A stretch of 20,000 nt of DNA, from contig JYFJ02001929.1 in the NCBI GenBank assembly GCA_000934665.2, positions 46,384 to 66,383 on the forward strand, in the 5' to 3' direction. Source of the DNA: Catajapyx aquilonaris. Its lineage: Eukaryota. Both the position numbers and the translations under genes were made by a program. The stretch's first letter is position 1, and each line of letters opens with the position of its first letter. The notes under the pieces were generated by a model. It was not told the DNA's origin. It saw only the letters and a list, made by a program, of their open reading frames with translations, and did not search any database. Positions 1-20,000 of the stretch are shown in pieces.

Positions 1-263
1 CGTGCAAATAATGTTTTGACAAAGTTTTCGGATGACGGACGAGAGAATCGACTTCGGATTGATGCAACATGCAGTTTCATTCGCAGGATTTATTTTTCCA
101 GCCCAACCGCATGTCCGTTGTTTGTGAAGTGCAATCATACTTTTAAAAAAATTGTGTCACTCCATTTTTGCCACATGAATTCACACGATATATTGGAGTA
201 AATATTGAGCTGTGTTGCTGACCAAAGCGTTCAAGGATCAGGCATTTCAAACTTGACCTCCAG

Positions 264-521
264 ACCCCTACAAGCCAGCCGGCCCTTCTGTTCAGCTTCA
301 TGAACCCCCTGGCAGTGGAAATATGGCTGTACGTGCTGGCAGCCTACATCCTGGTCTCCTTCACCCTCTTTGTGATGGCCCGATTTTCCCCATACGAGTG
401 GAACAACCCCCATCCGCCAAGGGAGGAACCTCCAATGGTCGAGAACCAGTTCTCCATCTCGAACAGTTTCTGGTTCATCACTGGTACATTTCTCAGGCAG
501 GGCTCAGGACTCAACCCGAAG
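264..521 (+). CDS. Grik: Pore exon A (pre-M1, M1, M2; R at Q/R site), 86 codons
   Basis: Acceptor cag at 261-263, donor GTCAGG at 522, 258 nt, phase 0/0. Translation [21 protein letters not shown]...[18 protein letters not shown]. Confidence 0.93.
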
Positions 522-2973
522 GTCAGGTTGATTCTCACAACCCAATATGACTGCTGGAGGAAGGAGGTTTTAAGAGGACTCGTACTGGGGGAGACCACTC
601 TTATGTCTTATGATCATGTGTCCGGGGGTCATTTTCCTTCTATTTTTCTATTTTTTTGGACATTTTTAGGTCCCTCAGAGCATGCCCCGTCGTCTGTTCT
701 CGTTCATGACCCCCCTTGCGACAGAGATCTGGGCCTACATCGTGGCCGCCTACCTGACAGTGTCCGTCACCATTTGGGTGGTGGCCAGGTTCTCCCCCTA
801 CGAGTGGACAGAGCCCCCTCACACCAGTGACCCCTGCCTGATGACCCCTTCCCCGTCAGACACCACTCAACCCGTCAACAACTTCACCCTTTCCAACTGC
901 TTCTGGTTCACCATGGAAACTCTCCTACAACAAGGATCCGGAATCTACCCGAAGGTACCATAGAGTTGGAATCTCGTCATGTGCCACCTGAATCTTCAAC
1001 ATTTAAAGATATAACATTGCTCAAAATGATTAGGCTGGAACATCCTGTTATACATTTTTTATCGGTGGCCTCACGAGTGAAAATAAGCACCATTATTAAA
1101 CGATTACATCGCAGGTGAATCCAGTCGTGAAAAATATTTAGATTCATCATCATTGGCGTGGGATGCCCCCTGAACTTAATGATTCCTGTACCGTAGAGGA
1201 ATTCAAAAATAAGCACCGAAATTTAATTTCATTCACTTACCCCAATGTTACTTCATTCTACTACTGTTATGTCTATCGGTCTCTTTTTTTATTTTAATGA
1301 AGTGCAGGATAGAAACAATCTAAATCATTGGCATACGGATTACACTCACAGATTGAGCTTTCACAACCATAACCTTTTTGATGCGTTTAATGTGTTTTGA
1401 GCTACAAAACTCCCCATCAATGGCTTCAAGGCTAATGCGACCAGTGACTGCCGTTTACTTTTACATCTTTTCCAACAATGGTGCTTATTTTCAAAACTCT
1501 ATGGTACATGAAATCCTTGTAGCTACATGTAGTTTCACAAGCTTTTCCCTTGCATTAGTTTAATTTAATCAGTAATAATAACCCATCACCAATCATCGAT
1601 CGTCTATGATTTAAAAAAACAGGCAGCTTCCACACGGATAGTTGGCGGAATCTGGTGGTTCTTCACTCTGATCATAATATCTTCATACACGGCGAACCTG
1701 GCAGCCTTTCTGACTGTGGAGAGGATGATCACTCCCATAGAGAGCGCGGAGGATCTCGCGGATCAAAGCGAAATACCGTACGGCACCTTGGAGAGTGGAT
1801 CGACCATGACCTTCTTCAGGGTGAGTCTATTCCAGTCAAAAGATCAACAACTTGTGGAATGACACTCGTTTCGTAGGACTCGAAGATCGAGACGTACCAG
1901 AAGATGTGGCGGTACATGGAGAGCCGAGAGCCAGGCGTGTTTGTGTCCACATATGAGGAAGGTGTGAAGAGAGTCCTGAGGGGAAACTACGCCTTCCTGA
2001 TGGAGTCGACGATGCTCGATTATGTGGTGCAACGAGATTGCAACCTGACACAAGTCGGTGGACTTCTCGATTCCAAAGGATACGGGATCGCCACTCCTAA
2101 AGGTACATTTCTAATAATCCATCCTACAAAATGTGTTCAACCTATGACAATATTCAGGTTCGCCATGGAGAGACAAGATATCTCTGGCCATACTAGAGCT
2201 TCAAGAAAAAGGGACCATTCAAATCCTGTACAATAAGTGGTGGAAGAACACTGCTGACGTGTGCAACCGAGAGGAAAAGGGAAAGGAATCAAAAGCCAGT
2301 GCACTGGGCATTGAAAACGTCGGTATGTAACTACGATGCATTGCCATCAATTGTGGTCATGTCACTTCTTTAACACGCTTTGTTACATCTCAGGAGGCGT
2401 TTTTGTGGTGCTGTTGTGCGGACTGGCTCTGGCCATAGTGGTGGCCATTTGTGAATTTTGCCTCAACTCGAGGAAAAACGCCAAAACAGACCATGTAAGT
2501 AAACTCATCCGAGAGTGAAACTACAGCATGAGGCATAAGCACAAAAAATATTGCAACAACACAAACCAATCTCCGGGAGTGCTAGTGACTTCTTGCTTTA
2601 AATGATCCTGTAATTTACTATCAGAGCTCTCAGCAGTAAGAACAACAAAATGATTTCAGAAATCAATATGCTCCGAAATGGCCCAGGAACTTCGCCTGGT
2701 GCTCCACTGCTCATCAAAAGCATCTCGAAAGAAGTCTGATCTCAAGAGATCATGTTCCAGATGCTCTCCCAGCACTTACATGCCCGCCTCACTTGATCTA
2801 CATCAGCTTAATAGGGTGCCGGTAAGTTACATGTTACGAGCGAAATTAAATATCTTGTTTAAAATAATCTAAGTCGCATCTCTTTCTTCTTTGCGTACAT
2901 ATAGGAAAACGGGATCATACCAATGATAGAGTTGGACAAATCTCCGGTGATGAGATTCGGAATGGATCAGTGA
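264..2973 (+). CDS. Grik: Kainate-type ionotropic glutamate receptor subunit (CG11155-like), 3' portion. Spliced CDS: [264-521 OR 670-954], 1623-1820, 1877-2102, 2158-2322, 2394-2494, 2660-2821, 2905-2973. The 5' exons lie upstream of the window.
   Basis: Manual splicing at GT-AG sites gives one continuous frame with iGluR hallmarks: LFSFMNPL-M1, ARFSPYEW, M2 pore FWF..G.FLRQGS, M3 [16 protein letters not shown]2 [13 protein letters not shown] and [30 protein letters not shown]4 [14 protein letters not shown]. Clade assignment is from recalled similarity, not a search. Confidence 0.95.
551..632 (+). promoter_or_regulatory. Intronic element complementary to both flanking duplicated exons (candidate docking or editing-complementary sequence)
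   Basis: 578-594 pairs with 384-399 (exon A) or 791-805 (exon B). 624-632 pairs with 300-309 or 706-714. Further colinear helices are present. Function is inferred. Confidence 0.5.
670..954 (+). CDS. Grik: Pore exon B, a paralogous duplicate of exon A (Q at Q/R site), 95 codons; putative mutually exclusive alternative
   Basis: Long pyrimidine tract 633-667, AG at 668-669, donor GTACCA at 955, 285 nt, phase 0/0. Translation [21 protein letters not shown]...[18 protein letters not shown] aligns end to end with exon A. Confidence 0.88.
1623..1820 (+). CDS. Grik: Exon: M3 (SYTANLAAF gate) and start of S2
   Basis: cag at 1620-1622, GTGAGT at 1821, 198 nt. [66 protein letters not shown]. Confidence 0.95.
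1877..2102 (+). CDS. Grik: Exon: S2 ligand-binding lobe
   Basis: tag at 1874-1876, GTACAT at 2103. [18 protein letters not shown]...[12 protein letters not shown]...[15 protein letters not shown]. Confidence 0.95.
2158..2322 (+). CDS. Grik: Exon: end of S2 and S2-M4 linker
   Basis: cag at 2155-2157, GTATGT at 2323, phase 1/1. (G)[54 protein letters not shown]. Confidence 0.95.
2394..2494 (+). CDS. Grik: Exon: M4
   Basis: cag at 2391-2393, GTAAGT at 2495. (G)[33 protein letters not shown]. Confidence 0.93.
2660..2821 (+). CDS. Grik: Exon: cytoplasmic C-terminal tail
   Basis: tttcag ending 2659, GTAAGT at 2822, 162 nt in frame. [17 protein letters not shown]...[14 protein letters not shown]...RVP resembles the S-x-CSEMAxELR tail of this clade. 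Confidence 0.88.
2905..2973 (+). CDS. Grik: Terminal coding exon ([22 protein letters not shown])
   Basis: Pyrimidine tract 2879-2892, tag ending 2904, in frame with the phase-0 donor at 2821, TGA at 2971-2973, polyA signal downstream. The peptide itself has no diagnostic motif. Confidence 0.7.
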   Translation, partial: ENGIIPMIELDKSPVMRFGMDQ

Positions 2974-3164
2974 TGGTGATCCAGATGGATTGAACCACAT
3001 TGCAGCTGAGAAAAGCCAAAGCCTTAAAGTCTGTGATATAACCACCAACCAAAAAGAAACCATTGAAACGGCGAATGCTGCTCACTCATCGCTATCTTTT
3101 TAAAAACTTTTCTATTGTAAGCCCACTTGCATACACTTGTGGGACCGTGACATGTCAGTGTTTT

Positions 3165-3170
3165 AATAAA
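3165..3170 (+). terminator. Polyadenylation signal AATAAA of receptor gene 1
   Basis: Canonical hexamer about 190 nt after the stop codon, followed by U/GU-rich sequence (3182-3226). Confidence 0.65.
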
Positions 3171-3730
3171 GAACGCAGTTATTTTTATTACTAACATTAT
3201 TGTGTAATTCGTTAGGGTTTTTCTGGTCAATTTTTTAAATTATGCCCTACTGTTATAAACCGTAAGGGAACAGCTGACGAAAGCTTCTGTCAGACCTTGT
3301 GAAAATATAATCCAAATTACGTATTTGTTTATCAGAAAAAAGCAATCAAACTGTTATTCGTATAATTGATTCTGACCAGAATCAGACAAAATATTGATGA
3401 TTTCATAACACGGAGAATTGAAGGCCCGATACTTATAAAGGCCAACCTTGAATGCAATGAGCATCCTCTGAACCTTCAACTCCGCGAAATCCAATCCTTT
3501 TCCAAGATCCGATTAGAGCGTTTCCGCCGGTGCTCAAGTACCCGCGATTTAATTAGTCAATGCGCCCCGTACAGTAATATCCAAGGCCTGAAAGGCTAAG
3601 GCCCCCATTTACAGCCAAATCTTCATAAGGATCGTGTTAAGAAACACGTTTAACTGGGATGCGTTGGTAATTAAACAAGACAGAAACTGTCGGAATTGCA
3701 ATGTATACGTTTCATACCAGGCTTACGGTA

Positions 3731-3883
3731 CAGGGTAGCTTAAATTCCAACGAGACAGGTAAAGTTCTCAAAGAGATTACACTGTCTTAATCTACACATA
3801 TTTATCAATTTCTCTTATATATGAAAAATTATTTTAAATATCAAAATTAAAGTGGGGCCAAAGTTTCTTGCTGAACCACCCTG
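3731..3883. mobile_element. Probable Tc1/mariner-type MITE relic (153 bp)
   Basis: Ends CAGGGTAGCTTA and (reverse complement) CAGGGTGGTTCA match 9/12. Both are flanked by TA (3729-3730, 3884-3885) and the interior is AT-rich. TA|CAG ends are typical of Tc1/mariner. Inverted similarity does not extend further. Confidence 0.4.
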
Positions 3884-6800
3884 TACAAAATTGCTTCAAT
3901 TGGATGCCCAACTGCGGATTGGATCGAATTTCATTAACGAGTAGCGCTCAAGTTTTGCGAATCGCGAATCTTCGCAAAAGTTTTCCAAAAGTTGGAAGGT
4001 GCATTTCCCTGGCTGGAAAACAAGCAGCGAGGAAATGCAACCAAGTGTAGCAAAAGCGAGCAAAAGTCCGGCAGTGGAATGAAAATGGGGGGTCCCAGCA
4101 GTGTTCCCCCCCCCCCTTCCCCTCTTTTCCAGCAGGGTTGGAAGAGAGAAGTGGACCGAGCGAGTGATGCTGGGGCTGGACCGAAAAACCTTTCATCTTT
4201 TGGCAGCAACGGAACCGAAAGGATCAGCAACGACTCCAGCTTCCGCTTCCCATCCCAAATCATTGGCTTCCAATTCAAAAGAGACTTAGTTGCTCGACTT
4301 ACGAGCCGGAACTAATTGGCTGCTGGACGGAGAAACTTCTGTCTCTGTGACAAAGTGTGAGCAGAATTCAAACAAAAAAAAATCCCTTAATGACTCGTCG
4401 TTTCAACGCCAATTAAGAGTAAAAATTTTCAACTGAGATTCTAAATTATTTGAGATTTTCATATATAAGCTGTGAATATTCGCATAGTCTGACATTTACT
4501 TTAAATGTGTTGTTATAGTGTGTTTAGATTTCAATCACATCCACAGACTGTTGCACGCGATTTTCAGAGCGAAAGCGCTTGGCAGTTCCATTTAATTAAT
4601 GTTGGTGAATGAACGGAGCAATATGCATGATTAAATCTGTACAGTGCAACCTACCTGTACGACCAGTTCATTTCAGTATTGCGAGCAATTAGTTCTTGGA
4701 GTGAAGACCATTTACATTAAGGTTGGTATCCATTAAAGACATCACAATTAGAAGGTGTATATGTATGTTTTTTAAATGATTTATTTAGGACCGTCTCTGT
4801 ATTGCTGTGCCAGTTACAGTCATAGCCCATTAATGTGCCATTTTAATATGCATTGAAACTGAAGAAGAAAAGCAAACGTCTCGGATTACGACCTTCTTTA
4901 CGGCAGTTCATTTCTTCTGCCCCGGGAAAACAATGGTGCTAAAGAAACCCTATGTCTTCAGTAATTAAAAGAAAACATGGGCTGACCGCAATACGAAAGT
5001 CATCATTGGTACCATCAGCTTGGAGCAGTTTCGATTGTGAACCAAGCTAGATGAGAGAGGAAAAAAATAAGAGTTCTCTGCAGGAAGGAGCGTCATTCGG
5101 ATTGAACACTTGGAGAGTAATGTGGGCACTTCGGAGCATCGAGAGAGAAACGTCCCTTAAAATACCGCTTAATTACTCTATTACCATCCAGTCGTTTACG
5201 CGGATTTAAGGAGGCAAAAATGGCTCCATTCAATCCAACTTAATTGCTCCTATGCGCCACTCTCTTTTTTATATTATATATTTTTTCTCTGGGAGTCTCC
5301 GATTTATAGCTGATTTAATCGCCACCAGTTAACGTCCTGGAAATCCATAAAATCACTGAATTTGTTGGGTCACATATTCACACTCTAATGACCTTCACTT
5401 TTACATTTAGCAAAACTTGGCAACACTGCCTTGCCCACACTGGATATGTAGTACCACATGCCTCACATACATGGCACATCCTTCCTCTCTGAACAAAATA
5501 AGAAAATTTTATGCTCATTACATAAGAGGTACGTTTTATGAATCTGTTCAGTACTTAATATGCATAAAGTGAAGGAATCAATAAGCCTGGTTTTCCCTTC
5601 ATCAGCAGTTGTTGCAATCTAACTTAGAAAGATCCTCTGATTGAAAGTGCTTTTTTTATTCAAATAAAGGGGAAACCGGCAGACAGCGGTGTACTTAAAG
5701 GTCGAGGTATACGTTAGCAGCAAAGTTCTTCGCATAGTATAACGAAGGCCTCAAGCAAAATCCTTTCTAGAGATAAGCCGTCAAAGACAGTCAAAATTTG
5801 GGCAGACATAACTAATATTCTTATAAGGTTGTTCCAACCACCGCAGGCCAAAATAATAAAGCTATTTTAAAAAATTTATTGTAATTTCGTAATTTTCCAT
5901 AACTTTTGCTAGAATATTTTACTAACGAGAAACCTCAAACTGAGCTTCTGAGTTTGTTCTGGTCCAGATATATTCCTCTTTCCAAAATCCCATGGCCAAG
6001 TCTTCCTGGCGGCCACAATGCAACTGGAATGTCAATGGCTCAGAGGTCCACACACCAAGGAAGCCCACGACTCCCTTCCACTATGGAAACCTGCAAAAAC
6101 CCGCACCATAAGTACGCCCGAGGGAGAGCTAAAAATCAACAAGAGTTTCGGGAGGGTTATGGCATTCACTTTGAAACTTTTCATTCCGATACGGTTTTTT
6201 TTTGCAAAAAAATAAGACCAAGTTTTAGATGTAGCAGATCTGCACGTGAAAAATAAATCCAGAAGAATCCACTGTGCATTACAGATTATTACATATCTTC
6301 CAGCATGTTGAATCCTACATACAACGGAATGAAATTTTCTGACATACTTTCCATAAAATTAAAAGGATTTTACTGTATGTGTTTTAGTCACATTGAGATC
6401 AACTATCAGATGATGAAACTAACAAAGTGAAAGCAAAAACAATCGATTTGTTAAGTCCTCTGTTAGTAATCCAATAATAACATTAGGTTCCAATTATTAT
6501 TTTAATGGAATTAAGCAAACGAGAGGACTGACTCGTCCCTTGCACACGACAAGTTCAATGCAGGTCTGACAAATCCTTGTCTTTTCTGACTCGAATGTCA
6601 ATTACCACTTCCCTTTCATGCCATTCCGGATGACAGCAGGCGAATGTTGAGTAAATGAGGTGTAAATAAGCGAACCCCCCCGTCAGCATTTCCATGCGTT
6701 GAAGAGCACTTGTACGTTGATAAAATTTGAAATTGCGAACTTTCATTTCCAAAAAAAAACCCGCACACATAATGCAAGGTATGTGAGAGCATAAATATTC

Positions 6801-9800
6801 CAGCAGGCGTTAACCAGCTCAGAAGCTCAAAATTTACGACATCTCCTGAATCGTCAACCGCGAGGTGACGAATTACATGAGCTCGTAATTAAGCCATAAA
6901 ATGGGATATAGAAGGGAGTGGCATAGAACAGACCAGTGTAGGCCCCAGAAGTTCATTATCGGCATTGCCATGAAATATACAGGTCCGTAAATTATATTAA
7001 GGCTCGCAGTGTACATTACGGTTTCAAAAAAAAATTGTATAAATCAGAGGGCTATCGATTACGTTGCTGTATAAAGCTTCGAACGTGTGGATTTCACGTT
7101 CATTTTTCAGCAGCCCCGTCATTGAAAAATTATCGCTTCACACGTAAATCCATTCCCCCTTCACATAATCACCTTCACAATGCCATTAGAAGAGGCGACA
7201 TTGCCTTTTATAGCCCAAGCGGCAAAATGATAAACATGTTAAGTTTGGAGCGATTAAAACCCTAAAATGAAGCTTCTACTTCTACAGAAAAAAATAGTCT
7301 TGTTTACCTCACGCAACTCAGGATTTTACCACACTGTTTCACGCCTTGTCCATTAGAGAAACTTTACGACCGCTTTTCGTCCGGGTGTTTAATAACTTTG
7401 TACCTGCTGTTATAGCATGGAAATGGTACGTCACGCTGCAATTAAAAAGCGTTTAGTGGCTGGCTGGGATCTCCTCGCTTCAGCTACCAACCGGCTTAAT
7501 TTCCTCACCGACAACCAGCCAGATGAAGCCATTTACACTTCCTAGAACCAGCTTCCGAGAGCATTTTGGTAAGGTTAAGAAGGCCAGGTTTATTAAGAGG
7601 TCTCCACACGCACTCTTACGTCAGAAATTAATTACGATCCGATTGCAATTTATCCAGTAAGTACTGCTGTCAACAACTTGCTTCACCTCCATTATAAAGA
7701 GGAAAAAACATTTGTGATAATGCGTTTGGCGCCTTTACAAAAACAAGGATGATGAGTTCTCTTCTATAGTGATCCGAGAAAACAAAAATTGCAAAAGTTT
7801 CTCACAAAATGAAGCAAAAGGGATTAGCTTTTCACGTAAATGTTATAAAAACGATCGATGCTTTAATTAAAGCCCTAGGAGCAACTTTTTCCCCTCCCAT
7901 TCCCAAATTATTCAAGAGCAATTTCAAGCCAAGCTCCAATCGTTGCTGGAAAAGGTGGCAAAGGCAAAAAAAACGGTTTACTAACTTGGCTTAAACAACA
8001 TGTTAACATTGATAATTTTATCAGTTAGTATTACCGTTAGTATTATAATTTCAATGACTTTATTTCCATTGGACTTGCCAAAAAAGTAGCCAATATCGTT
8101 CCCTAAGGTGAAATCAATACCCAGTGGAAATGGGTGTGGAAGAGAGCGATCCACTTAACCCACCCTTCTACACCCCAATCCCTGCTTGAAATTTAATGTG
8201 TCCAGTGGACTTGGACCTTTCATCTCTTCCCCCATGCTTCTGATGTCATTTTTCGGACACTCAATCGGAGTCAGGGGCTGTCTGGCCGCAGGATAACAGT
8301 CTCAACAATTTTTATTGAACAAAAGGTCTCCTTTCATCCTCCCCATTTGCACAAGAAGACAACCCGGGCCCCTTCAACAATCCAACCCAATCACTCTCCA
8401 TAATCCAGCTGGGGGTCCAAATCAGCAAAAGTGTTATTTCCAAGCCCTAGAAGCTGGGGGAGAGGAAGAAGCGCGGTAAAATCAAATAAAAGGCAAGCTT
8501 TGATCTTGTCCCACAGAAAAAGAGAAGGCTTTTTCACTCTTCATTCTGTATATCTAGCTGTGTGATCCTATGTTTGTGAGTCACGTGCTGAGAGTCAGAT
8601 ATTGCTTCTGAAATAGAGGCTGTTGAGGCAAAGCTGAACTTATGGCACACCTTGTATATCACGTAGCAGCGATTGGTAGAAAATAAATCCTTGCTAATGG
8701 AAACTGCCAGCAACCTTGGTCCCAATCCCAAGGGCATCGATTCCCCCAATTAATGGGATTGGGCTTGGTGTATATATGGGCCAATGGGCGTGGGAATAAT
8801 ATTATAGGAAACAGACTGAAGGAGACAGACAAACGGCCATCTTTTAATTACAACCCAGATTATTAATATCGGGTGAGCAACAAAGGTGTTTTCAGCTACA
8901 AAGTAACCAAAGTAAGTTGATGGAATGTTGATCTTTCCCTTTAACGCAACAACCAGATCTAAGAGGGGATGATCAAAGAGACCTCAAAAGCGAAAACATA
9001 ATTAGTTTCAGATGAAATTCCAATTTGTGGTGTGCCTTAGAAAAGCCAGGATTATCCTTCAGTCCTACCTGCACCTCCTATTATTCATTCAGTCCACATT
9101 TTTTTTCGCCAAGCAAGAAAATCTATCCACCGAAAACAAGAGCGATTTGTTCGGCAATCCCTTTTCCATCAAAGCCCTAACCGTACACCCAAATTGTTAT
9201 TTTATCCCCTTCGAACATCGTTGTATGTTGTGCGTGTGTGTACACATTGGGAGAAAACTCCCCAAAGGCTGATGCTCACCCACTATGAACCGGAGCATTA
9301 TTCATGCAATGATCCTCTTTGTACTGTCCATATTTGATTGTGTGTTGTTTGTCTTTGTTTGAATAACTGATGCGGTCTGTTTCTCCCTTCGGGTTACACC
9401 CGAATTCTGTCGACTGTGTGTCCAGTATGGGGCAAACAGCGCATTATTGCATTTTATTCTCAATTTTGGACCATGTTTAAAATATCTTTCATGTCCTTCT
9501 CTCCAAGTGTTTGTATACTTGTACAATGCAGTGGGTTTCTGAGTGACAATGAACAGAATAAAGTGTCACCAGCACCAGTTAGAGAAGGTGGTGGACGGAA
9601 CAAGGTGGTAATTGACCCGTCAGTGGACTCAACATATCTGACCGCGACCAATTAACACCGCCATAATTAAATCTCAGTAATGTCTGGCATGTCTAGAGAT
9701 TTTTTTGTGGATATGTCGCCTCAAAAAAATGAAGGCTCTTTCTCTCGCTTTAGAAAAAAAAGCGTGAATATATCTCCTGAAAAGCGAAGCAGGCAGCATG

Positions 9801-10070
9801 AAGGAGATGATGTCAATTACAACCCATTATAAGCTGAGAGAGACCCGTCTTTGCCACGAACACTCGCCAATTTCCGACGAAGGTTTATCAAGGCTCTGAC
9901 GCTAATGACTTTTTTTTTCTCTCGCTCGCTCGTCGCAAGAAATCCGTTGCGTCAACTGTGCAAGAAGTCTGTTGATTAGCTCTCGCTTCCGCCTTGGAAC
10001 TTGATCTGCCTTGTTCAGAATCACATGCTTTACATTCGTATAAAAACTGTTCTAATTATTCACATTTTTT

Positions 10071-10176
10071 CCTTGCCTACCCTTACCATACCTTACTTAA
10101 CCTTCCCTAACCTAATCTGACCTAACCTAACCTAACCTAACCTAACCTGACGTAACCCTAACCTTTGAACCTAACC
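10071..10176. repeat. Interstitial telomere-like (CCTAA)n / (TTAGG)n pentamer array
   Basis: About 20 pentamer units: perfect (CCTAA)5 at 10121-10145, with degenerate units (CCTTA, CCATA, CCTGA, CGTAA) on both sides. Confidence 0.9.
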
Positions 10177-12122
10177 ACAGGAAAATTATTAACTAGATTT
10201 TAGTAGCCTACAGTACTTGGATCAAATAAGTGCAGACATCTAATGCTGTATTTCTTACTTGAAAATATTTCTGCATTCATGTAGATCACGTACAGGCAAA
10301 GGAGGAATGGCGCATTGAGGTGTTATGTGGCGGTTGATGAAGCCTGGTTCTACCTCGTGCAATATTATTCAGTTGGAGGCTCCGGAATCTCCCTCGGATA
10401 TGAGCATACCCGGAATTCCAGAGTGAGACACGACAACTTTCTCACCCCCCACCCTTATACTTGCAGGGACCTTTCCCAGGGGTCTCTTTTTCGCCAAAAA
10501 TATATTCTCATACTCTGGAGGGGAAGTCCAAGGTGAAGGCAATATAAATACAACCCACCCCTAGAGGCCTCTGGAATATGAGGCTGCTGTGGTCTGACCT
10601 TACCCTTGTTTAGGAGATGTTTAAAGCCGGACAAGATTGTGATTAAATCCAGTATTTTTCCTACACGAAGCGAGCAACATCGATCATGCAAATGAGGTTT
10701 AATGTGAAGCGGATATAACGGATTTCGCTTATGGAATATTAAGCCATGTAATTTTCACTCGAATAATTTTCTCTATACTACTAGGGAAAAGTGCATTGAC
10801 TAAAGAAAAATGACAGAAGCTCTAGTTTGAAATGTTGATCAGTTTTTGATCGATAGTTGTTGCGAGGCTGATAATGTCGAGTGGTGAGAGCATTGCACTC
10901 AACCAGAGCACGCGAGAGACCTCAAAACAATCATATTGTTCGCTCTCGCAGGGCTTTATAAATGAGCGGTTGACCGCAACAAAAGAGCATTTGTGTCATT
11001 ATTAAGCTTTTCCTATAGCCAACTGCGATATAGAGGACTGAAATCAGCTCTATCAGATGTGGTCGCATGGCTTTTCATAATAATCCGCAATTTTTGATGG
11101 CCTCGAAACATTGACGAAAATTCCGGGACTGTGCGTTGAAACAATGGAAAAAATTAACTCCACTTCCAGATAACATGCGTTATCGCATCAATGTGACCAT
11201 TTCGCTGGACCTTAATTGCCGTGCAGAACATTATGCAATGGTTGCGGCTAATTGCTGATGCAAGAAAATGTGGGAATAATCGCAATTAATCATAACAAAT
11301 GTATAGTTTCGCACCGATTGTGTGTTACATTTCAGTTGCTGATTTCTCCTCATTAAATTAATGATTGGAGAGGCTCAATATTTTTTTATTGCGTGAAATA
11401 GCATATTAACACCACAATAATTAATTCAAATATTAATTTCTTCACTTTCTCTGCTCATCTTTAGAGTCTCACGTGCCATTGACTCTCGCTTGCCATTTGC
11501 AAGGTACAGCCTGAGCCAAGAGAAAAGGAGGCTGCATTACGCCGGATTAGTTCCGCAGTTGGTTTGAAAAGGAGCCAACATTTCTTGTGACGGGTTGGTG
11601 GGGGAAGGGGATGGAGAGGAAAAGGGGTTGAAAGGGAGAGGGAAAGAAGTGGTATCAAGGCGAATCATTATTGATCCTCCATAAGAAGAAGAAAGTTGAG
11701 GGGAGTTGGGGGGAGGCCAGATTTTCCAGAGCAACTGGAGCATGCGAAACATCCTTCTCTTTTTTTCTGACTCACTAAAAATGTGCAGAGTCCATGTCGC
11801 ATATTGTATAATGGGCATGTAATTCAAGGAAGATCGTAAATTATTGTGACAGTTTAGTAACAGTACTGTTGTAATATGTCGTTAAAAAATGTGTTTAAAG
11901 CTGGCTTTGAAGGGTATGCAACTCTGTGTGGAAAGGGTGGAGCCTGGTGATGGGGGGCCCGGAGTCTCATTCGTGGGACTGAATCCGGGCAGGGCACAGG
12001 CGCAGGTTTTAGGCGGAAGGGTAGGAGGTGGATGGGGTGGGCCTAAAAATATTAGGCCCTTTACTGGTCTGGGTTTCGGTTCGCCTGGCAGAGGCACGTG
12101 GGACGGATAGGAACCATGAGCC

Positions 12123-12228
12123 ATGCCGTTGCCCAGGGGCCACGGGGCGGGCCTCCTCGCCCTCACAGCCCTATTCTTCTGCCTCGGGGCCGCCCCTGTG
12201 CTGGCCCTGCCACCGGTCATCAAGATAG
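12123..12228 (+). CDS. Grik: First coding exon (signal peptide plus start of the amino-terminal domain) of a second kainate-type iGluR gene
   Basis: gccATG at 12123. MPLPRGHGAGLLALTALFFCLGAAPVLA|LPPVIKI(G) has a hydrophobic core, a V-L-A signal peptidase site and the LPPVI(K/R)IG start typical of insect kainate receptor mature N-termini. Phase-1 donor AG|GTCAGT at 12229. Locally GC-rich. Confidence 0.82.
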
Positions 12229-15200
12229 GTCAGTAAATGGCTTCTGTGCATTAATTTTGGGGTTAGCATATTAATAGCAATATTAACATATTTTTAAACC
12301 ATACACGCAATAAAGCCATCCCACATTAAGAGCAATGAATATGCCAAATGAATTATTGGATTCCAATTTAATCCACTTATTGATCATAGATTGGCACAGT
12401 CCAAAATGACAGTTGGTCACTGCAAATAATTATGCTAGTTATCCACAAGAGCATTTTGTTTCATTACATCTTATTAGTGTGGTTTGGAATGGAACGTAAT
12501 TACTTAATTACTTCGCGTATGCCACAAATGTGAGTGACTCTTCAGCAAATTTCGATGACCGGATAGGAATCACAGCCATTTACAGCTGTTGCGATTATTG
12601 ACAATGATTCCGTCAGTTTAGTACTTAAAAAACTAGATGTAATTTGTCTCACTTTTCGGCATATAAAAGCCTCTCCCGGCAACTGCAATGTCCAAGGCAA
12701 TAAAGGCATGTGACAGTCTATGACCGGATATTTACCTTTCTGGCTGCGAGGTTTGATTAGGAAACCAGATGCGATACTGGGGGACCAAAAAGGCCGGAAA
12801 GAGTAATTCCGGACAGAGAATGAATTCTTGTGGGAATTCCTCGGGTGCTCATTTACAAAAGAGACTGAACCGCGTCGGTTTATTTACTCGTGCCATAAAG
12901 CAAGCGCTTATAAAGCCCCCCCCCCTGCGGTTCCCAGCTCTACAATTACACAGATAGGAAGCTTAAAAATGGTTCAGAGAGGCCGATAGAGCCAGACTTT
13001 ACAGCCCTAAAATTATACTGGGACCAGTGTCGGCAACAACACTTACTTCCGACTCACTACGCAATCTAATGGATTGTTCGAATCGTTTTTGAAACATCCT
13101 GTAGCTTTGTAGCAGCATTTATTGAGCGTACGACCTGCCTCTCTGAGCAGACAGAATGATCATTACGCACTTGGTCATTTCCATAAGCAAACCATCCTCG
13201 GTGGGCATCACTCTTGAAACAAAATGTCAGTCCTACTCTCAGCTTGCAAAATCTCGAATTTGCATACAGAGCCTGGATGCGAATTCCGATTTTATACGAT
13301 CAGTAGGGGTTTTTTTTGGGGGGGGGGGGGGTGGAAAGTACGAGGAGGCCACAAATCCTGGTCGTGACCGTTTATGCCGAGTCCTTCTCGTAACATTATT
13401 CAGGCTTTCAAAAATACATAGAGTGGTGGAAAAAATGAAGAGAAAAAAGAGAGAGAAAAAATGAAAGGAAGAGAGAACCGCCATTTTCACTTAAGAGTGA
13501 CCCTGACATCACCAGTCAATACCTCTTTTTCTCTCTCTCTGAACTAGGTCTGACTGCTCTTTTCAGATTTGAAGAAGACAAAAAAAAAATGGAGGCAAGA
13601 GAGAGACAGGCCTACCTTTTGTGCTAGTCCATCAGACGGAAACTTGGGGCTATTCTCAGGCACGAACAGGACCTGGGAACATAAGATTTGTCTTAGTTTC
13701 TTCCACACGAAAAATCACTGACTTATAGACTTTGGTCACGTCACATTCCTTTGCTATAATAAATTGTGTAAAGCAAAGAACTACTGTCCGCATCAAACCA
13801 AAAATGCTTGGATTTCAGCTTATTAATGACATGGAAAGAAGCTACTAATTGTAGAGAAGTTGGTTTGAATGAACTGTTGGAAAGTCGTATGTCCCTGGGC
13901 TTAGCTCCCTCCAAATTCGGGGCTTAGAAGGCGCTTTAATTCCGAACATCACCGCTGGTTCTCTCCCGCGATCTTCATCTAATCTTGGCCCCAAAACTCT
14001 CCTCTGCTTGATGTTAAAGAGCAAATCCCTCCGGAACCTCCCCTGAATTCGGATGGACCTTCTTGCCCTGTCCCTCAACCCACTTCTCTCAGGAAGGGAC
14101 AATTCAAAGGTCAGATTTCCAGACCTCTGTAATCGTTTATTATACAACGAACAGAAGCTCCTGACATGATAATCCCTTCCAAGTTTGGGCAGATGAGCAA
14201 CAAATATTCCGAACCGAGCGGATTAATCATTAACTGCTGGCGGAAGTTGAGTCATCAAGGCCCTCGTCTTAATATACTTGCCCATCAAAATGAGAGCCAG
14301 GATTCCTTTAATTACCATAATAAGCCGACTTTGCAGCCAGGAGCAGAAATGGAGGGTTATAAATCGCAAGGACAATTATTGTCTGCAGGGTATTTCATAC
14401 TTATTCCTCGAAACGCTTTGATACACCCTGTAGGCACCCCCCAAAAATGTCTGCACCTCCCAATCCATCAGTTAGAAAAATGGAATCGGGATCAATCAGC
14501 GTTCAATCCACATCAGAAACGAGGATGGGTCCAATAATTTATTCGGCGTCATCCTCTCTTTCTATCCAGGAGAGCGTTTACCCGATGGAAAGCTGTCTTT
14601 ATAAATCAGTGTGATCCAAAAGAGAAGGTTGTGTGACTGGTCCTCCTCTTGCTTCCTCCACATTCATGGCTCCAAGCCAGATTTCGAAGGGGGACCCAAC
14701 TGGCGCCGACTGGAGTACCAGAAACAACCTACTCCAACAATAGTCACTGACCTACCCGAATCTAAAGCATTTTGCTCCTTTACAATTTGTAGATTTGGAT
14801 GTGGTAATCCACATGTCCTGAAAAAGAGGCTGTTCACACTTCTTTTTTTTCTGAGCAGTTAGCTCGTCATTAATCCCAGTGCCTTAAGCCTTCATCCCTC
14901 TTAAGACAGTTTGCGCTCCTTCAAACGGCGAGGCAAAGAAATGCGAGAAGAATCCCCGAGAAAATCCCTCAAGTGGCGTGCATCATCCCTTACATAAATC
15001 CCCCACTGCAGACTGGTGCAAGTGAGAGCCACAAATGGTTTCAAATCTAAGATCAAAATTAATCACAAGCTATAGAGAATTGACTCTTTTTTTCACTTCC
15101 AATTATTTAAAATGTATCCTGTGTGTAAAGTAACAAAGTTTTCACCATGACAATACTCAGCTAGTGCTCCTAATTCTATATTAAAATTTGCATATATTAT

Positions 15201-18200
15201 GGACGTCAAAATGTTTCCCATTACTATAAGCTGAGTTCTTCTCTATTCCCCAACCTACAATGCAAGTTAGAAGCATAAAACGAGCCCTCTTTTGATTGGA
15301 CGAGTCTTCTTATTTTTCAGCCCTTATTCTACGCGGGTATGCCTTACAATGAATGATGCCATCACCTCGTTTTGCACCAAGTGTAAATTGTTCCAGGAGA
15401 AAACGTGGTTCAAATATCATCCAGAAATGAGATACACAAGCTCAGGCAGTACATTTTCCTCCAGGGATATACGCCGTTTTCTAAGTCTCAGAAAAAAAAA
15501 ACTAGCTCAAATATTGCCCGTTTCGTCCATGCAGAATTGGGCATAAATCGAGGCTTCCCTTGCTTCATTTTCGCACTAATTATTATCTGGCGAGTTTCAA
15601 CTATGCTAAAAACTGGGAGGAAGGGAATGGGTTGTATAATTGGGTGGAAAAAAGAGAGGAAGTTGTTCGATAATCCCTCAGGCATTATTCAGCCTTGCAA
15701 TTTGTAAAAGTACGCCGCCTGCTTATTTTAATGACGAGATTTCAGCTTAAATTAGCTGGTTTCTTCAGAAAGTCAGATTATTATTTCTTAAACGTAAAAA
15801 AAGTTGGTTCCTATACTTTTATGTGCATTCATAACGCGACACTCAATATGTGGCTTTAAGATCCGCATGCAAATGGCGTTCATTGTTGCGAAGGGTTGTT
15901 CCAGCCAAGCATTTATCACGTAGCATTACGCACTCATTATAATTAATTCCTTGCTTAAAGCACGTCACCCTGACTTAATGACTTGTCATGCAGGACTCCA
16001 TCATGTATACGATTCATTATTGCGCATCGTGAAGTGACTTCTATTCGGACAGGCAGCATTGTGCCATGGTTACCATTCAAAATCTCAAATTAATCCCTCG
16101 TTTAACTGAAATCAATGTACCTTTTTGGCGACTGGCTTAATTAAACGGTCAAGATCGGATCGCACATTATTTTTTGAGTCGGACCTTGATCGACAACCAC
16201 GACTGGTTTCAATTAGGTCGTCTAATGCGTTAGGTGCCAAACCCCCTGATATCTGGAGGGGCTCGTTAACTCGTGATTAATGAGCCCCAAGCGTATGCAC
16301 CTTTCCCATCCATCAAACTCATCCCTGTGACTCAAGTGTCGAGCAATCCTGCCCTAGGTGGTTTCAGGATTGAAAATCAAATATTGCCTAGTCTCAGCTT
16401 CCAGTCTCCAAATGTTTGTTCCCAGTTTTTTTAAAAAAAAAAAGTTGACCCGAGCAAATGTAACGACTTTTTTTTTTGTCCAGACCATGATTCACACACA
16501 CTGCGACAATGGGAACTGGTGACAGGTTTGGAGGGGGGGGGGGGGGAAAAAGGTCGCAAAAATTACGATGGGGGAATTTCGGGGGGAGTAATTTTCAAAA
16601 AAATTAAGATTTATGCACCCGGTGCTGTTGTTTGTCTGATGCTTTTATGGCAAGTTTATAGTCTCCGGGAAGGATAGCCCTGTCCTGTCAGACGCCTTCC
16701 AGCCAACATAAATTATGGAAAATGTTCCAGGCCTGAACCCCATATCACTTTCCAGCACCTATGAAGAGTTAATAATCTGCACTTTTGATAATTGCAATTC
16801 GCAGCTCGAACTTATTGTCGGACACGAAATAATAAAAACGGCGGGGATTTGTAGGAATTAACTCTGCCCGCTAATGAATGCCTGTGTTAATTACACCCGT
16901 GCGGCTGTTCCTGGGCAGCGGAATAGTCGGACTTAATCAGAGGTTCTGAATAGGACCACTCCATAAAATGTACAGTGCTGTGGAAACCTGAAGATTAAAA
17001 AATATATACAGTTTGAATATGCGGATTGGACAAGAAACCAGGTTTCATTCGGATGTGAAGTGCGTCATATTCCATCAGGATGAATTTTGAGCTATTGAAA
17101 CAAATATTTACCGTTCCTGCAAGTGACAGGCGGCCCCCACACAATATCACTTCCATGTAGTCCGAAACGATGACAAATTTTGGTCCTAAGAGACGCATCA
17201 GTTCTGGCAAAAAAAGTGATGAGAAGAAGGGTGCATTTGACATGCCAAACAAGACACGAACAAGTGTGTCTGGAAGGTGGCGGGGAAGATCTGGCTTCTG
17301 TCACGTAGCTAAATGATCAATAGTTGGCTGATGTAATGCGTTGCTGCTTAGACAGAGAAGGATGTCAAATGTACCTCTTGTTCCTGCTGAAATTTCAGGA
17401 CAGTCAAATTCAAAGAAGTTCAGGGATAATACGTCACATCCAGAAGCTTGAAAAGAAACGCAACTTTGCTCAGTCATAAACGCCATGTCATTTTTCAGAC
17501 CTTTTTTTTTTTTGGCACTGGAGTCCGTGAGGTGACAGAAAAATGGGGTAGGAAGATGCGGGAAGGCGGTGACAAATGGGTGGAAAGGACCGCTCGACCC
17601 CAACCCAGATCGAGGACCGGCCCACACATTTTTGTCGCCCAGGGTGATAAGGCCAGTGGTATAAAAAGTTGCGATCATAAATTCCCCCACAAAAAAGACT
17701 TGACCTCCTTCGGTTCCACTATCAAAATGGAAGCAAAGTGCCCTGAACGCGATTAAACACACCTTTTTGTATCAAATAGCTCAGGAATATCCTCTATGAA
17801 CTTTAATAACCGGATAAGTCACATACAGTGTTCTTTCGCAGTGAACAACCTCAGTGTATCGATCATGTCGCTTCGAGAGAAGAGACAATATTAGAGCCTG
17901 CAAAATTCTCCGCAGAATTCCAATTGGAAGGACCCCTGAAGACGTCGATTTACATTGCAAATTGCACCCGCTTCTTATTAAGTCCTCGTGTCTCATTTCC
18001 CTGATTTATTATGTTGGGGGGGCTAATAATGGTTAGAAAAAAGTGCGGAAAATTGTCCTTCTTGATGGGAATGGTAATGACCTCTCCCTTCCCTGCTTTA
18101 CTTTCTTTCTAATTATTTCATGTCCGCTCGCGCCTGAGTCATTTGGTGGTCTTGGAGGCCACAAGAATAGTGCTCTTAACTTCTAGACGAAAAAAAATAC

Positions 18201-20000
18201 ACGCCATTACTCCGCAACTGCAAAGTCAGGCCAGCTTTTGTTCCCTTGTCGCTATAACTTCACAGCCAAATTAATCTGACCATTTGAAGCATGACTCTCA
18301 GCTCTAAAATTTTACTTCGGGCCTTGTTGTCTTGCAGAAAAACGTACTTATTTATTATAAGAAGGTTAAGGCACATAATATTTTGTGTGCTAATCACTGT
18401 TATTTAAAAAATCGCCGTTTTGCTCAGCATCATTGATAATAAATGAAAATGTCTGTTGTCTGGTGTAGGAAAATTGTACTTCATGCACTAATTTTCGGCA
18501 TGGAAGGGAATTCTGCTGGCGAAATTAAGGAAGCCTGGTCCTGCAAATTGGCCCATTCCGGAGGGTCGTTCCTGGCAAGAAATTCCGGAGACCTTAGTTC
18601 CTCCTTACTTCCGGAGTAAAATTCCTTCACGGTCCGGGCATAACACCTTTCCTTCCACCAATATTCCCTCGCTCAAAAAAGATAAAACTGGTTTTTTCCC
18701 CCCTTGCAATGACCAAAGTTGGGAAAAGGGAAAGTTATGTCACTCATGTTTCAGCTCATGTTGAATTCATGCGCTGCAATAGTGCAAAACCATGAGTCCG
18801 TTAATAAACAATTTGGGAGCGGGCTTTGTTGTCTGGCTGCTTGGAATATTTAGGCCAACCCGAAGCCCATTTAGGTTAACACGACCGCACAATTGAGTCG
18901 TTAACGAGCATTTAGCTGCAAATGGCGCAACCTCATTAATGCAAATTTAGGTGTAATAAGGAAAAAAATTCACGCGTACAATTCCATGGTGAGAAAAAGA
19001 CTTCCACTTTTTTTTGGGAGGGACCAAAATTGATGTCACTTTCTTATGAAGGGAGGTACCAGCCGCGGAAGCAAAGAAAGACTTGGTTCCATCGGAAGAA
19101 AGATTGGCAAGTGGGTTATTCCCTTTGGCCCCGGGGCGACGAAGCAAGACGGGAACTAATGTCGGTCTGCCCCGGAGAGAGAGTGACTCTTCCAACCGCA
19201 GCAAGAGATCGAAAATTCCACAGAGGCGATATCCTAGAGAAATAGATCACAAAATAGCGATTTTTTTTTCAAAGTGTAGGAAAAATCATATGGTCTTCGT
19301 CGAAGGCCAAATATTATATGAGGCAATAAAAATGGAATGAATATCGGGTATACATTTGGCAGAAGTGCACTTTCATATAATATTACACTGATCAAAAATG
19401 CACGACTCTAAATGACATTCTGAAATTACATTTCAGAAGACAAAGGAATAACGGTAGGTACTGATTAAATTTGGATTCAGTGTGCCCCCCTTTCAAAATG
19501 TAATAATGCTGCACATTAAGTAGAGTAAATACATTTCGAATTCTTTAAAAAGGAACGAGCCAAGCAGCCTGTAAGAAATTGCCAGTCTCTTATTCGCAAA
19601 GTTGGAGAGGCACAGCAGGATGCGGTGGTAGAATCGCATTGCTATGCAAGAAATGAGGCCCAAGCATCCAACCGTGTATATAGAGAGTGGAGGAAGGAGA
19701 GGGGGAAAAAAAAGGAGCAAGAGTTAATCCCCACGTCTGTTTTGCGTATACGAAACTACGTGACGCCGTGTTCCTGGTTTTTTATTCCCGTGTCTGGAAG
19801 GGCAGATAATGTGCAAATAAGCTTCTTTTTCCACCCCCGATCCTGCTTCCAGCTTAAATTAAAGCTCGACAGATCCGGAGCAAGTCAGGCGCGGAATTGC
19901 GATCAAATTACTTGTGAAATTCCTATACGTGTCACACACACTGGAGTGTTCCCAAAGGCAGTGTCTCCATCACAATAATGCAATTCCCATGAAAGATAGA
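12229..20000 (+). other. Probable first coding-region intron of the second receptor gene (over 7.7 kb, open-ended)
   Basis: Starts at the GTCAGT donor. No phase-1 acceptor continuing with (G)AIF... was found by eye, and there are no credible ORFs. Confidence 0.6.

Follow-up and report, generated by a model that had tools for sequence, protein, structure and literature searches.

A candidate two-way RNA-pairing element between tandem R-type and Q-type pore exons of a kainate-type glutamate receptor gene in Catajapyx aquilonaris

The analysed stretch of DNA (20,000 nucleotides (nt) of Catajapyx aquilonaris contig JYFJ02001929.1, assembly GCA_000934665.2, positions 46,384 to 66,383 of the forward strand; hereafter the window) contained the 3' half of an arthropod kainate-type glutamate receptor gene. 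Two adjacent pore exons, A and B, were separated by an intron and followed by an M3 exon, and the intron carried a short element antisense to the same conserved codons of both exons (Table 1), which may serve as the docking site of a competing RNA structure. The assignment to the kainate-type receptors was evident from the recognition of M1, the pore loop and M3 by the Pfam Lig_chan profile and from the presence of the SYTANLAAF motif. Exon A, exon B and the next exon covered profile positions 2–64, 2–63 and 62–113, with E-values of 5.6e-19, 8.9e-16 and 1.3e-21, respectively. The two pore exons were 50.5% identical and showed the features of a tandem pair, namely adjacent homologous exons of similar length and the same phase (phase 0, both a multiple of 3 nt) encoding the same protein segment. 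Their limits, frames and canonical borders agreed with those given in an initial annotation of the window.

HMMER analysis revealed GluK2 and GluK3 as the closest solved structures for both exons, with exon A aligning to GluK2 residues 552–629. Exon A was 84–88% identical to arthropod receptors named 'kainate 2-like' from decapods, isopods, Daphnia and many insects, including Drosophila CG11155. In the protein comparison of exon A, 984 of the 1021 candidates matched, and the best ones were arthropod proteins named kainate 2-like. For exon B, 931 relatives could be recovered by an index-free search, the best public relative being 63% identical. None of the public proteins was identical to the window protein, and exon A scans of the genome and viral contig collections (separate from the metagenome contigs described below) gave no relatives. 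The pore helix of exon B (window 904–930) carried Glu at a position that is Gly in exon A, in GluK2 and in every relative listed (FWFxxG). This exon is unusually divergent and may be specialised or decaying.

Table 1. Features of the receptor gene and of the intronic element in the window (window coordinates)
Feature	Position	Strand	Description
Exon A	264–521	+	258 nt, 86 codons; AG 262–263, GT 522–523; M1, RFSPYEW motif, pore helix; R-type
Partner site, exon A	375–400	+	Codons M-A-R-F-S-P-Y-E-W; core helix 384–399; RNAduplex with 577–598, −24.2 kcal/mol
Q/R-aligned codon, exon A	495–497	+	AGG (Arg); HMMER alignment FLRQGSG / LMQQGSE
A–B intron	522–669	+	148 nt, GT...AG
Purine-rich stretch	551–569	+	Imperfect pairing with exon B 843–859; 563–569 pairs with exon A 427–433
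Central element, candidate docking site	577–600	+	About 24 nt; antisense to the V-A-R-F-S-P-Y-E-W codons in exons A and B
Two branch-point-like CTTAT motifs	600–611	+	A603 and A610, directly 3' of the element; regular-expression scan; putative branch-point role
GGGGGTCAT	624–632	+	9/9 pairing with exon B 706–714; one bulge with exon A 300–309
Pyrimidine tract and exon B 3' splice site	633–669	+	Read from the sequence
Exon B	670–954	+	285 nt, 95 codons; AG 668–669, GT 955–956; Q-type
Partner site, exon B	780–806	+	Codons V-A-R-F-S-P-Y-E-W; core helix 791–805; RNAduplex with 577–600, −30.4 kcal/mol
Q/R-aligned codon, exon B	928–930	+	CAA (Gln); HMMER alignment LLQQGSG / LMQQGSE
Next exon (M3)	1623–1820	+	AASTRIVGG...SYTANLAAF...TMTFFR; open reading frame; shared acceptor for either alternative exon

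The two exons carried different residues at the glutamine/arginine (Q/R) position of the pore. The Arg of exon A and the Gln of exon B were positioned opposite the first Q of the GluK2 motif MQQGSE, residue 621, which we take to be the Q/R editing site. In vertebrate AMPA and kainate receptors, R versus Q at this pore position governs calcium permeability and rectification. An exon-exon inverted repeat was also observed here (window 493–506 with 828–841; 14 nt, 93% complementary; −25.3 kcal/mol for 486–515 with 821–850), and it spans the Q/R-aligned Arg codon of exon A together with loop codons of exon B.

Since the two exons are homologous, the intronic element can pair with either of them. 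RNAduplex analysis of its core (578–594) gave −21.5 kcal/mol with exon A 384–399 and −24.3 kcal/mol with exon B 791–805, although these core helices consisted of only 15–16 pairs with a bulge. The flanking stretch 624–632 gave −16.4 kcal/mol with exon B 706–714 and −12.6 kcal/mol with exon A 300–309, while 563–569 with exon A 427–433 and 551–569 with exon B 843–859 gave −9.6 and −20.9 kcal/mol, respectively. Every helix named in the initial annotation could be found at its coordinates, and all of them were nested. When the RFSPYEW sites were compared against 1434 windows, the central element was the best partner of both (−23.5 for exon A and −29.2 for exon B; next best −15.8 and −19.7). No second copy of the element 577–600 was present in the 20-kb window when up to 3 mismatches were allowed, on which ground an origin from a repeat or transposon was rejected, and an Rfam search of window 1–3000 gave no match at E-values up to 1. 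Downstream of the element, the intron was pyrimidine-rich and free of AG dinucleotides from about 611 to 667.

Competition between the two pairings was evaluated using the partition function. When exon A and the intron only were folded, the element paired with exon A at a mean probability of 0.55, with about 0.55–0.67 for the pairing of 578–590 with 388–399. Upon the addition of exon B, the probabilities rose to 0.95 for the element with 791–805 and to 0.97 for 624–632 with 706–714, and those of the exon A pairings fell to 0.00. This shift of probability from A to B was in accordance with the earlier claim that the two folds compete for the same intron bases. In silico, the arrangement was that of a docking site, with one element, two selectors, the same bases used and the pairings mutually exclusive.

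The pairing was further compared with chance within the window, with 10000 dinucleotide shuffles of the A–B intron as the null for a strict local pairing score. This score was reached by 1344 of the 10000 shuffled introns for exon A, by 1837 for exon B and by 296 for both; among 1686 natural 148-nt windows taken from 3–20 kb, the corresponding numbers were 68, 132 and 20. The local duplex energy in 24-nt windows was matched by 76 (A), 32 (B) and 10 (both) of 581 shuffles, and the energy of the whole nested duplex of the intron core by 255 (A), 43 (B) and 10 (both) of 1343. Across the three tests, shuffled introns matched as well in 13–19% of cases for exon A, in 3–18% for exon B and in 0.7–3% for both exons; the excess over chance was weak. 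In the RNAfold comparison, the 522–954 fold had a z-score of −1.18 (12/100 shuffles as good), and its minimum free energy (MFE) structure was the right-hand fold proposed in the initial annotation, in which the element pairs with exon B, but the 264–669 fold had a z-score of +1.15, with 92/100 shuffles folding at least as well. The best 24-nt pairing of the central intron was −28.0 with exon A and −32.6 with exon B, against a range of −19.6 to −23.0 for the other two introns of the window, whose best values were −21.6 (A) and −23.0 (B).

The exon pair itself was found to be old and widespread, with alternative use in relatives. Among the best 120 matches of exon A, most non-dipteran models had an R-type exon (LRQGSG) with a Q-type exon (LMQQGSD) directly after it. 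The R-then-Q tandem pair was present in annotated proteins of decapods, isopods, an amphipod, Daphnia, Artemia and many insect orders, and the same pair could also be observed in a paralogous gene. As both exons cover the same Lig_chan segment, a working subunit can hold only one of them, and the public gene models that contain A and B in tandem are, for the same reason, probably prediction artefacts. Such a recurrent annotation error is possible because both exons preserve the frame. Proteins with exon B only were annotated in Panulirus ornatus, Penaeus monodon and P. japonicus (P0133, P0135, P0136). Scanning of metagenome contigs with exon A yielded 37 loci, among which five cDNA-like contigs (L001, L003, L006, L011, L012) had the A-type exon joined straight to the M3 exon; in L011 and L012 the exon peptide was the same as that of the genomic locus L013, which is a locus without exon B. 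On this basis, mutually exclusive use of exons A and B would be expected in Catajapyx aquilonaris.

The pair was missing from part of the arthropod-like sequences recovered, and in some lineages the R-type exon occurred alone (L013 2690–3304; also L015, L019, L022–L026 and L034). At these R-only loci, the M3 exon followed after approximately 144 nt or without an intron, and an extra intron was located inside M1, between EIWL and YVLAAY. Among the papers listed in literature searches, none dealt with alternative R/Q exons of kainate receptors in arthropods, although the cluster may already be catalogued, and those listed for CG11155 included no splicing or editing study. The occurrence of an R-type/Q-type exon pair across crustaceans and insects is worth reporting in its own right, and it flags the recurrent annotation error.

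To compare the pairing between loci, the main helix was fixed, and any non-coding stretch antisense to the RFSPYEW codons of the locus itself was scored against 50-nt block shuffles. When the site was fixed beforehand in this way, the outcome for the window varied with the statistic used. For exon A, 5/1000 shuffles were as good with a 21-nt site, 26/1000 with a 36-nt site and 19/58 in the thermodynamic test (36-nt site, equal steps); for exon B, the values were 0/1000, 36/1000 and 4/57. The first version of the thermodynamic test scanned the null at a coarser step than the observed sequence, and the second version used equal steps. A strong signal was obtained from the mayfly-like locus L010, whose exon A peptide is identical to that of two mayfly proteins (1/1000 with the 21-nt site, 2/1000 with the 36-nt site; thermodynamic 3/256 with the coarser null and 0/92 with equal steps). 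A moderate signal was obtained from the ant-like loci L007 and L008, whose exon A peptides are identical to attine-ant proteins; the values were 69 and 61/1000 (21-nt) and 31 and 89/1000 (36-nt) for L007, with thermodynamic values of 0/118 and 0/112 (coarser null) and 1/56 (equal steps), and 52 and 48/1000 (21-nt) and 27 and 70/1000 (36-nt) for L008. Across the 14 control loci, which had no B exon, were cDNA-like or were distant paralogs, the smallest value was 86/500, which indicates that the test does not over-call.

In the window, in L010 and in the L007/L008 pair, an intronic stretch was antisense to the RFSPYEW codons of the locus itself; the register was the same each time, and the stretch matched the synonymous codons used at that locus. 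In the shared register, the GAG codon faces CTC and the Pro codon faces GGG, with an irregularity at or beside the Tyr/Phe codon, and the three positive duplexes also share a second helix on the V-M/V codons. L010 pairs CGT TTT TCA with GCA AAA AGT, while exon B of the window pairs TTC TCC CCC with AG AGG GGG, so that the differences, seen between these three lineages only, are compensatory at synonymous sites. The antisense element was present in 3 of about 6 lineages having the exon pair. In L010, 135 nt separated the element from the exon A donor upstream of it, and the MFE fold of 375–830 paired the site 480–509 with 773–805 over 26 pairs (29 pairs by RNAduplex). In the ant-like loci, exon B was split by an extra intron, and the element lay immediately before the acceptor of that intron. 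There it could pair equally well with exon A (−33.3) and exon B1 (−35.3) and, in L007, with the intron's own 5' end (−32.7). The reverse complements of all three elements resemble truncated versions of the exon segment, which would fit either co-evolution of the helix or repeated local inverted copying.

The extra intron of the ant-like exon B was further found to carry terminal inverted repeats (L007 6374–6394/6884–6905; L008 1712–1732/2223–2244), which are GC-rich in an AT-rich intron and form 13 perfect pairs plus 5 more at −32.7 kcal/mol. The 5' arm of these repeats resembles the FSPYEW codons. In L007, a further antisense copy, corresponding to the FVMAR codons, was located at 7062–7079, just past the exon B2 donor.

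Arrangements of this type are known from several systems. In human ATE1 exons 7a/7b, competing pairings between R1 and R3 and between R3 and R4 were proven experimentally, blocking of the central element led to more double inclusion, and the isoform ratio tracked the difference in helix energy (Kalinina et al., Nucleic Acids Res 2021, PMC7797038). The window resembles ATE1 in having tandem homologous alternative exons and an intronic element between the exons with a repeated partner on each side and mutually exclusive pairings. In ATE1, the two partners are located in introns, each directly overlying a 3' splice site and its pyrimidine tract. In the window, by contrast, the predicted partners are coding and lie 120–140 nt inside the exons on either side of the element; moreover, one of the folds encloses a donor and the other an acceptor. 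The initial annotation had regarded the architecture as unusual. This holds for the coding-sequence partners only; it was overstated for the central two-way element itself, which is already established in ATE1.

Exactly this outcome, two selectors for one docking site, is predicted by the model of Ivanov and Pervouchine (Genes 2018, PMC6071210) for the case in which a single arm of a stem is duplicated. The window shares with Dscam1 exon 6, 14-3-3zeta, Mhc and srp a single docking sequence and several selectors related by exon duplication. Known arthropod selectors are intronic and activate the adjacent exon. Unlike those, the selectors of the window would be the conserved RFSPYEW codons, and pairing is predicted to disfavour the exon concerned. 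Another resemblance is to the editing-site complementary sequences of GRIA2 and GRIK1/GRIK2, in which the intron downstream of the M1/M2 exon supplies a stretch that pairs imperfectly with the coding sequence. In contrast to these, the duplex of the window does not include the Q/R-aligned codon, and R or Q is genomically fixed.

As the favoured explanation, the element may be part of a competing exon-intron structure that biases the choice between exons A and B, in the manner of ATE1 but with coding-sequence partners; this is a tentative reading, which we consider possible though somewhat short of probable. The exon choice would set arginine (A) or glutamine (B) at the Q/R-aligned pore position, and the element 577–600 would act as the single docking site. 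During transcription, the element could first pair with exon A and thereby place the exon A donor within a loop of about 180 nt. With exon B transcribed, the stronger B pairing would take over, and the acceptor of exon B would be enclosed together with its pyrimidine tract and branch-point candidates. Exon choice would be biased by the balance between the two folds, the paired exon being the disfavoured one, and joining of A to B would become less favourable. The splicing effect, its direction and the exclusive use of the exons in Catajapyx aquilonaris are predictions of this scheme.

Two other mechanisms for exclusive exon use had already been considered weak in the initial annotation, and this judgement was retained. 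Nonsense-mediated decay was rejected because both exons are multiples of three. Steric exclusion operates when the distance from donor to branch point is roughly under 50–60 nt. The only YTNAY candidates in the 3' part of the intron, A603 and A610, are motif matches located 81–88 nt from the exon A donor, which makes steric exclusion between donor and branch point unlikely.

If the competing structure exists, the selectors of a splicing switch would reside in conserved coding sequence, synonymous sites of a channel motif would be under selection at the RNA level, and the switch would be tied to the functionally sharp R versus Q pore choice. In a broader form, the switch would be an old pancrustacean one, with the RFSPYEW codons of each pore exon as selectors for one intronic docking element, so that structure-guided mutually exclusive splicing would set R/Q in arthropods, a task that in vertebrates falls to ADAR editing directed by a duplex between an intron and the homologous exon; in this broader form the proposal is unlikely. 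The arthropod switch and the vertebrate editing system could share an ancestral exon-intron stem.

Several observations weigh against the competing-structure reading. The excess of pairing over chance within the window was marginal, the site in the window was chosen post hoc, the exon A signal was at chance by several statistics (13–19% of shuffles; 19/58), and the two fold z-scores, +1.15 and −1.18, were unremarkable. L010 becomes borderline, taken alone, after correction for about 25 loci. With the 21-nt site, no signal was obtained from the ortholog or paralog loci L009, L002, L004, L005, L013, L014, L016–L018, L027 and L028 (all at least 139/1000), several of these being contigs that end within 0.4–1 kb of the exon; in the 36-nt run, which covered the negative loci other than L017, L028 gave 94/1000. 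Among these, the termite-like L009, at 965 and 932/1000, has a complete A–B intron of 2.9 kb. An antisense copy of the exon site was seen in the mayfly-like and ant-like orthologs but not in L009. The position of the element is not conserved either, lying in the A–B intron in the window, 135 nt past the donor in L010 and at the 3' end of an intron inside exon B in the ant-like loci. As the ant-like element can also base-pair with the start of the intron that contains it, bridging of that intron may be its chief role. Furthermore, we know of no case in which enclosure in a 180-nt loop silences a splice site as directly as pairing over the site does. Overall, the interpretation given in the initial annotation appears partly supported, in that the observed pairing is real and recurs in two other lineages, while its statistical weight in the window is marginal.

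Much of this also favours the explanation that the pairing has no function and is due to chance together with composition (a G-rich intron core opposite C-rich codons, TCC CCC among them), or is a neutral by-product, for instance a short inverted copy made by template switching in replication. The frequency with which shuffled introns did as well for the single exons, the unremarkable folds, the 19/58 of exon A in the thermodynamic site test and the negative result at most orthologous loci are all in line with this, as are the different position of the element in every lineage and the resemblance of its reverse complement to a shortened exon copy, as a local inverted duplication would leave. 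Against it stand the joint A+B match, reached in only 0.7–3% of shuffles, and the use of the same exon site and register in three lineages with lineage-specific synonymous codons matched. Old neutral inverted copies should have decayed, three recent independent events at one site would be unlikely, and the 14 control loci gave nothing. The absence of function is considered somewhat unlikely. A one-way structure, in which pairing with either exon mainly masks the exon B branch point as a tunable silencer of exon B and the ant element bridges intron ends, would suit the position of the helix, 3–10 nt ahead of A603 and A610 as the only motifs resembling branch points, with 611–667 free of AG. It would also suit the population of the B pairing alone at equilibrium (0.95 vs 0.00) and the −32.7 pairing between the L007 element and the start of the surrounding intron. 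However, it gives no account of the homologous partner site in both exons, nor of how A–B joining would be blocked with the helix open, and the branch points are motif matches only; we regard it as quite unlikely.

ADAR editing offers a further explanation, in which the element is an editing-site complementary sequence whose duplex recruits ADAR to adenosines of the M1 end and FSPYEW, and the complementarity to two exons simply follows from their homology. Exon-intron duplexes in the M1/M2 exons of glutamate receptors are classic ADAR substrates, and Herb and co-workers are said to have reported in 1996 that Q/R editing of GRIK1/GRIK2 needs intronic sequences. Additional editing sites of GRIK2, located in M1, have a part in cation selectivity. 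The L010 duplex, at 26–29 pairs, is within the usual size range of such substrates, but the core helices of the window comprise only 15–16 pairs with a bulge. Moreover, the duplex misses the Q/R-aligned codons 495–497 and 928–930, at which R versus Q is genomically fixed, and its adenosines would recode Y or E of FSPYEW, residues that were unchanged in 5/5 cDNA-like contigs (from other species). An editing role for the element is likewise regarded as quite unlikely.

Outside the receptor gene, recognisable gene homology in the window stopped near 2.8 kb, as determined from the translations of open reading frames, and the six longest remaining open reading frames in window 3000–20000 gave no Pfam match. 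Tandem repeats could be observed in this part of the window at 10090–10164 (ACCTA, 14.8 copies) and at 13429–13465.

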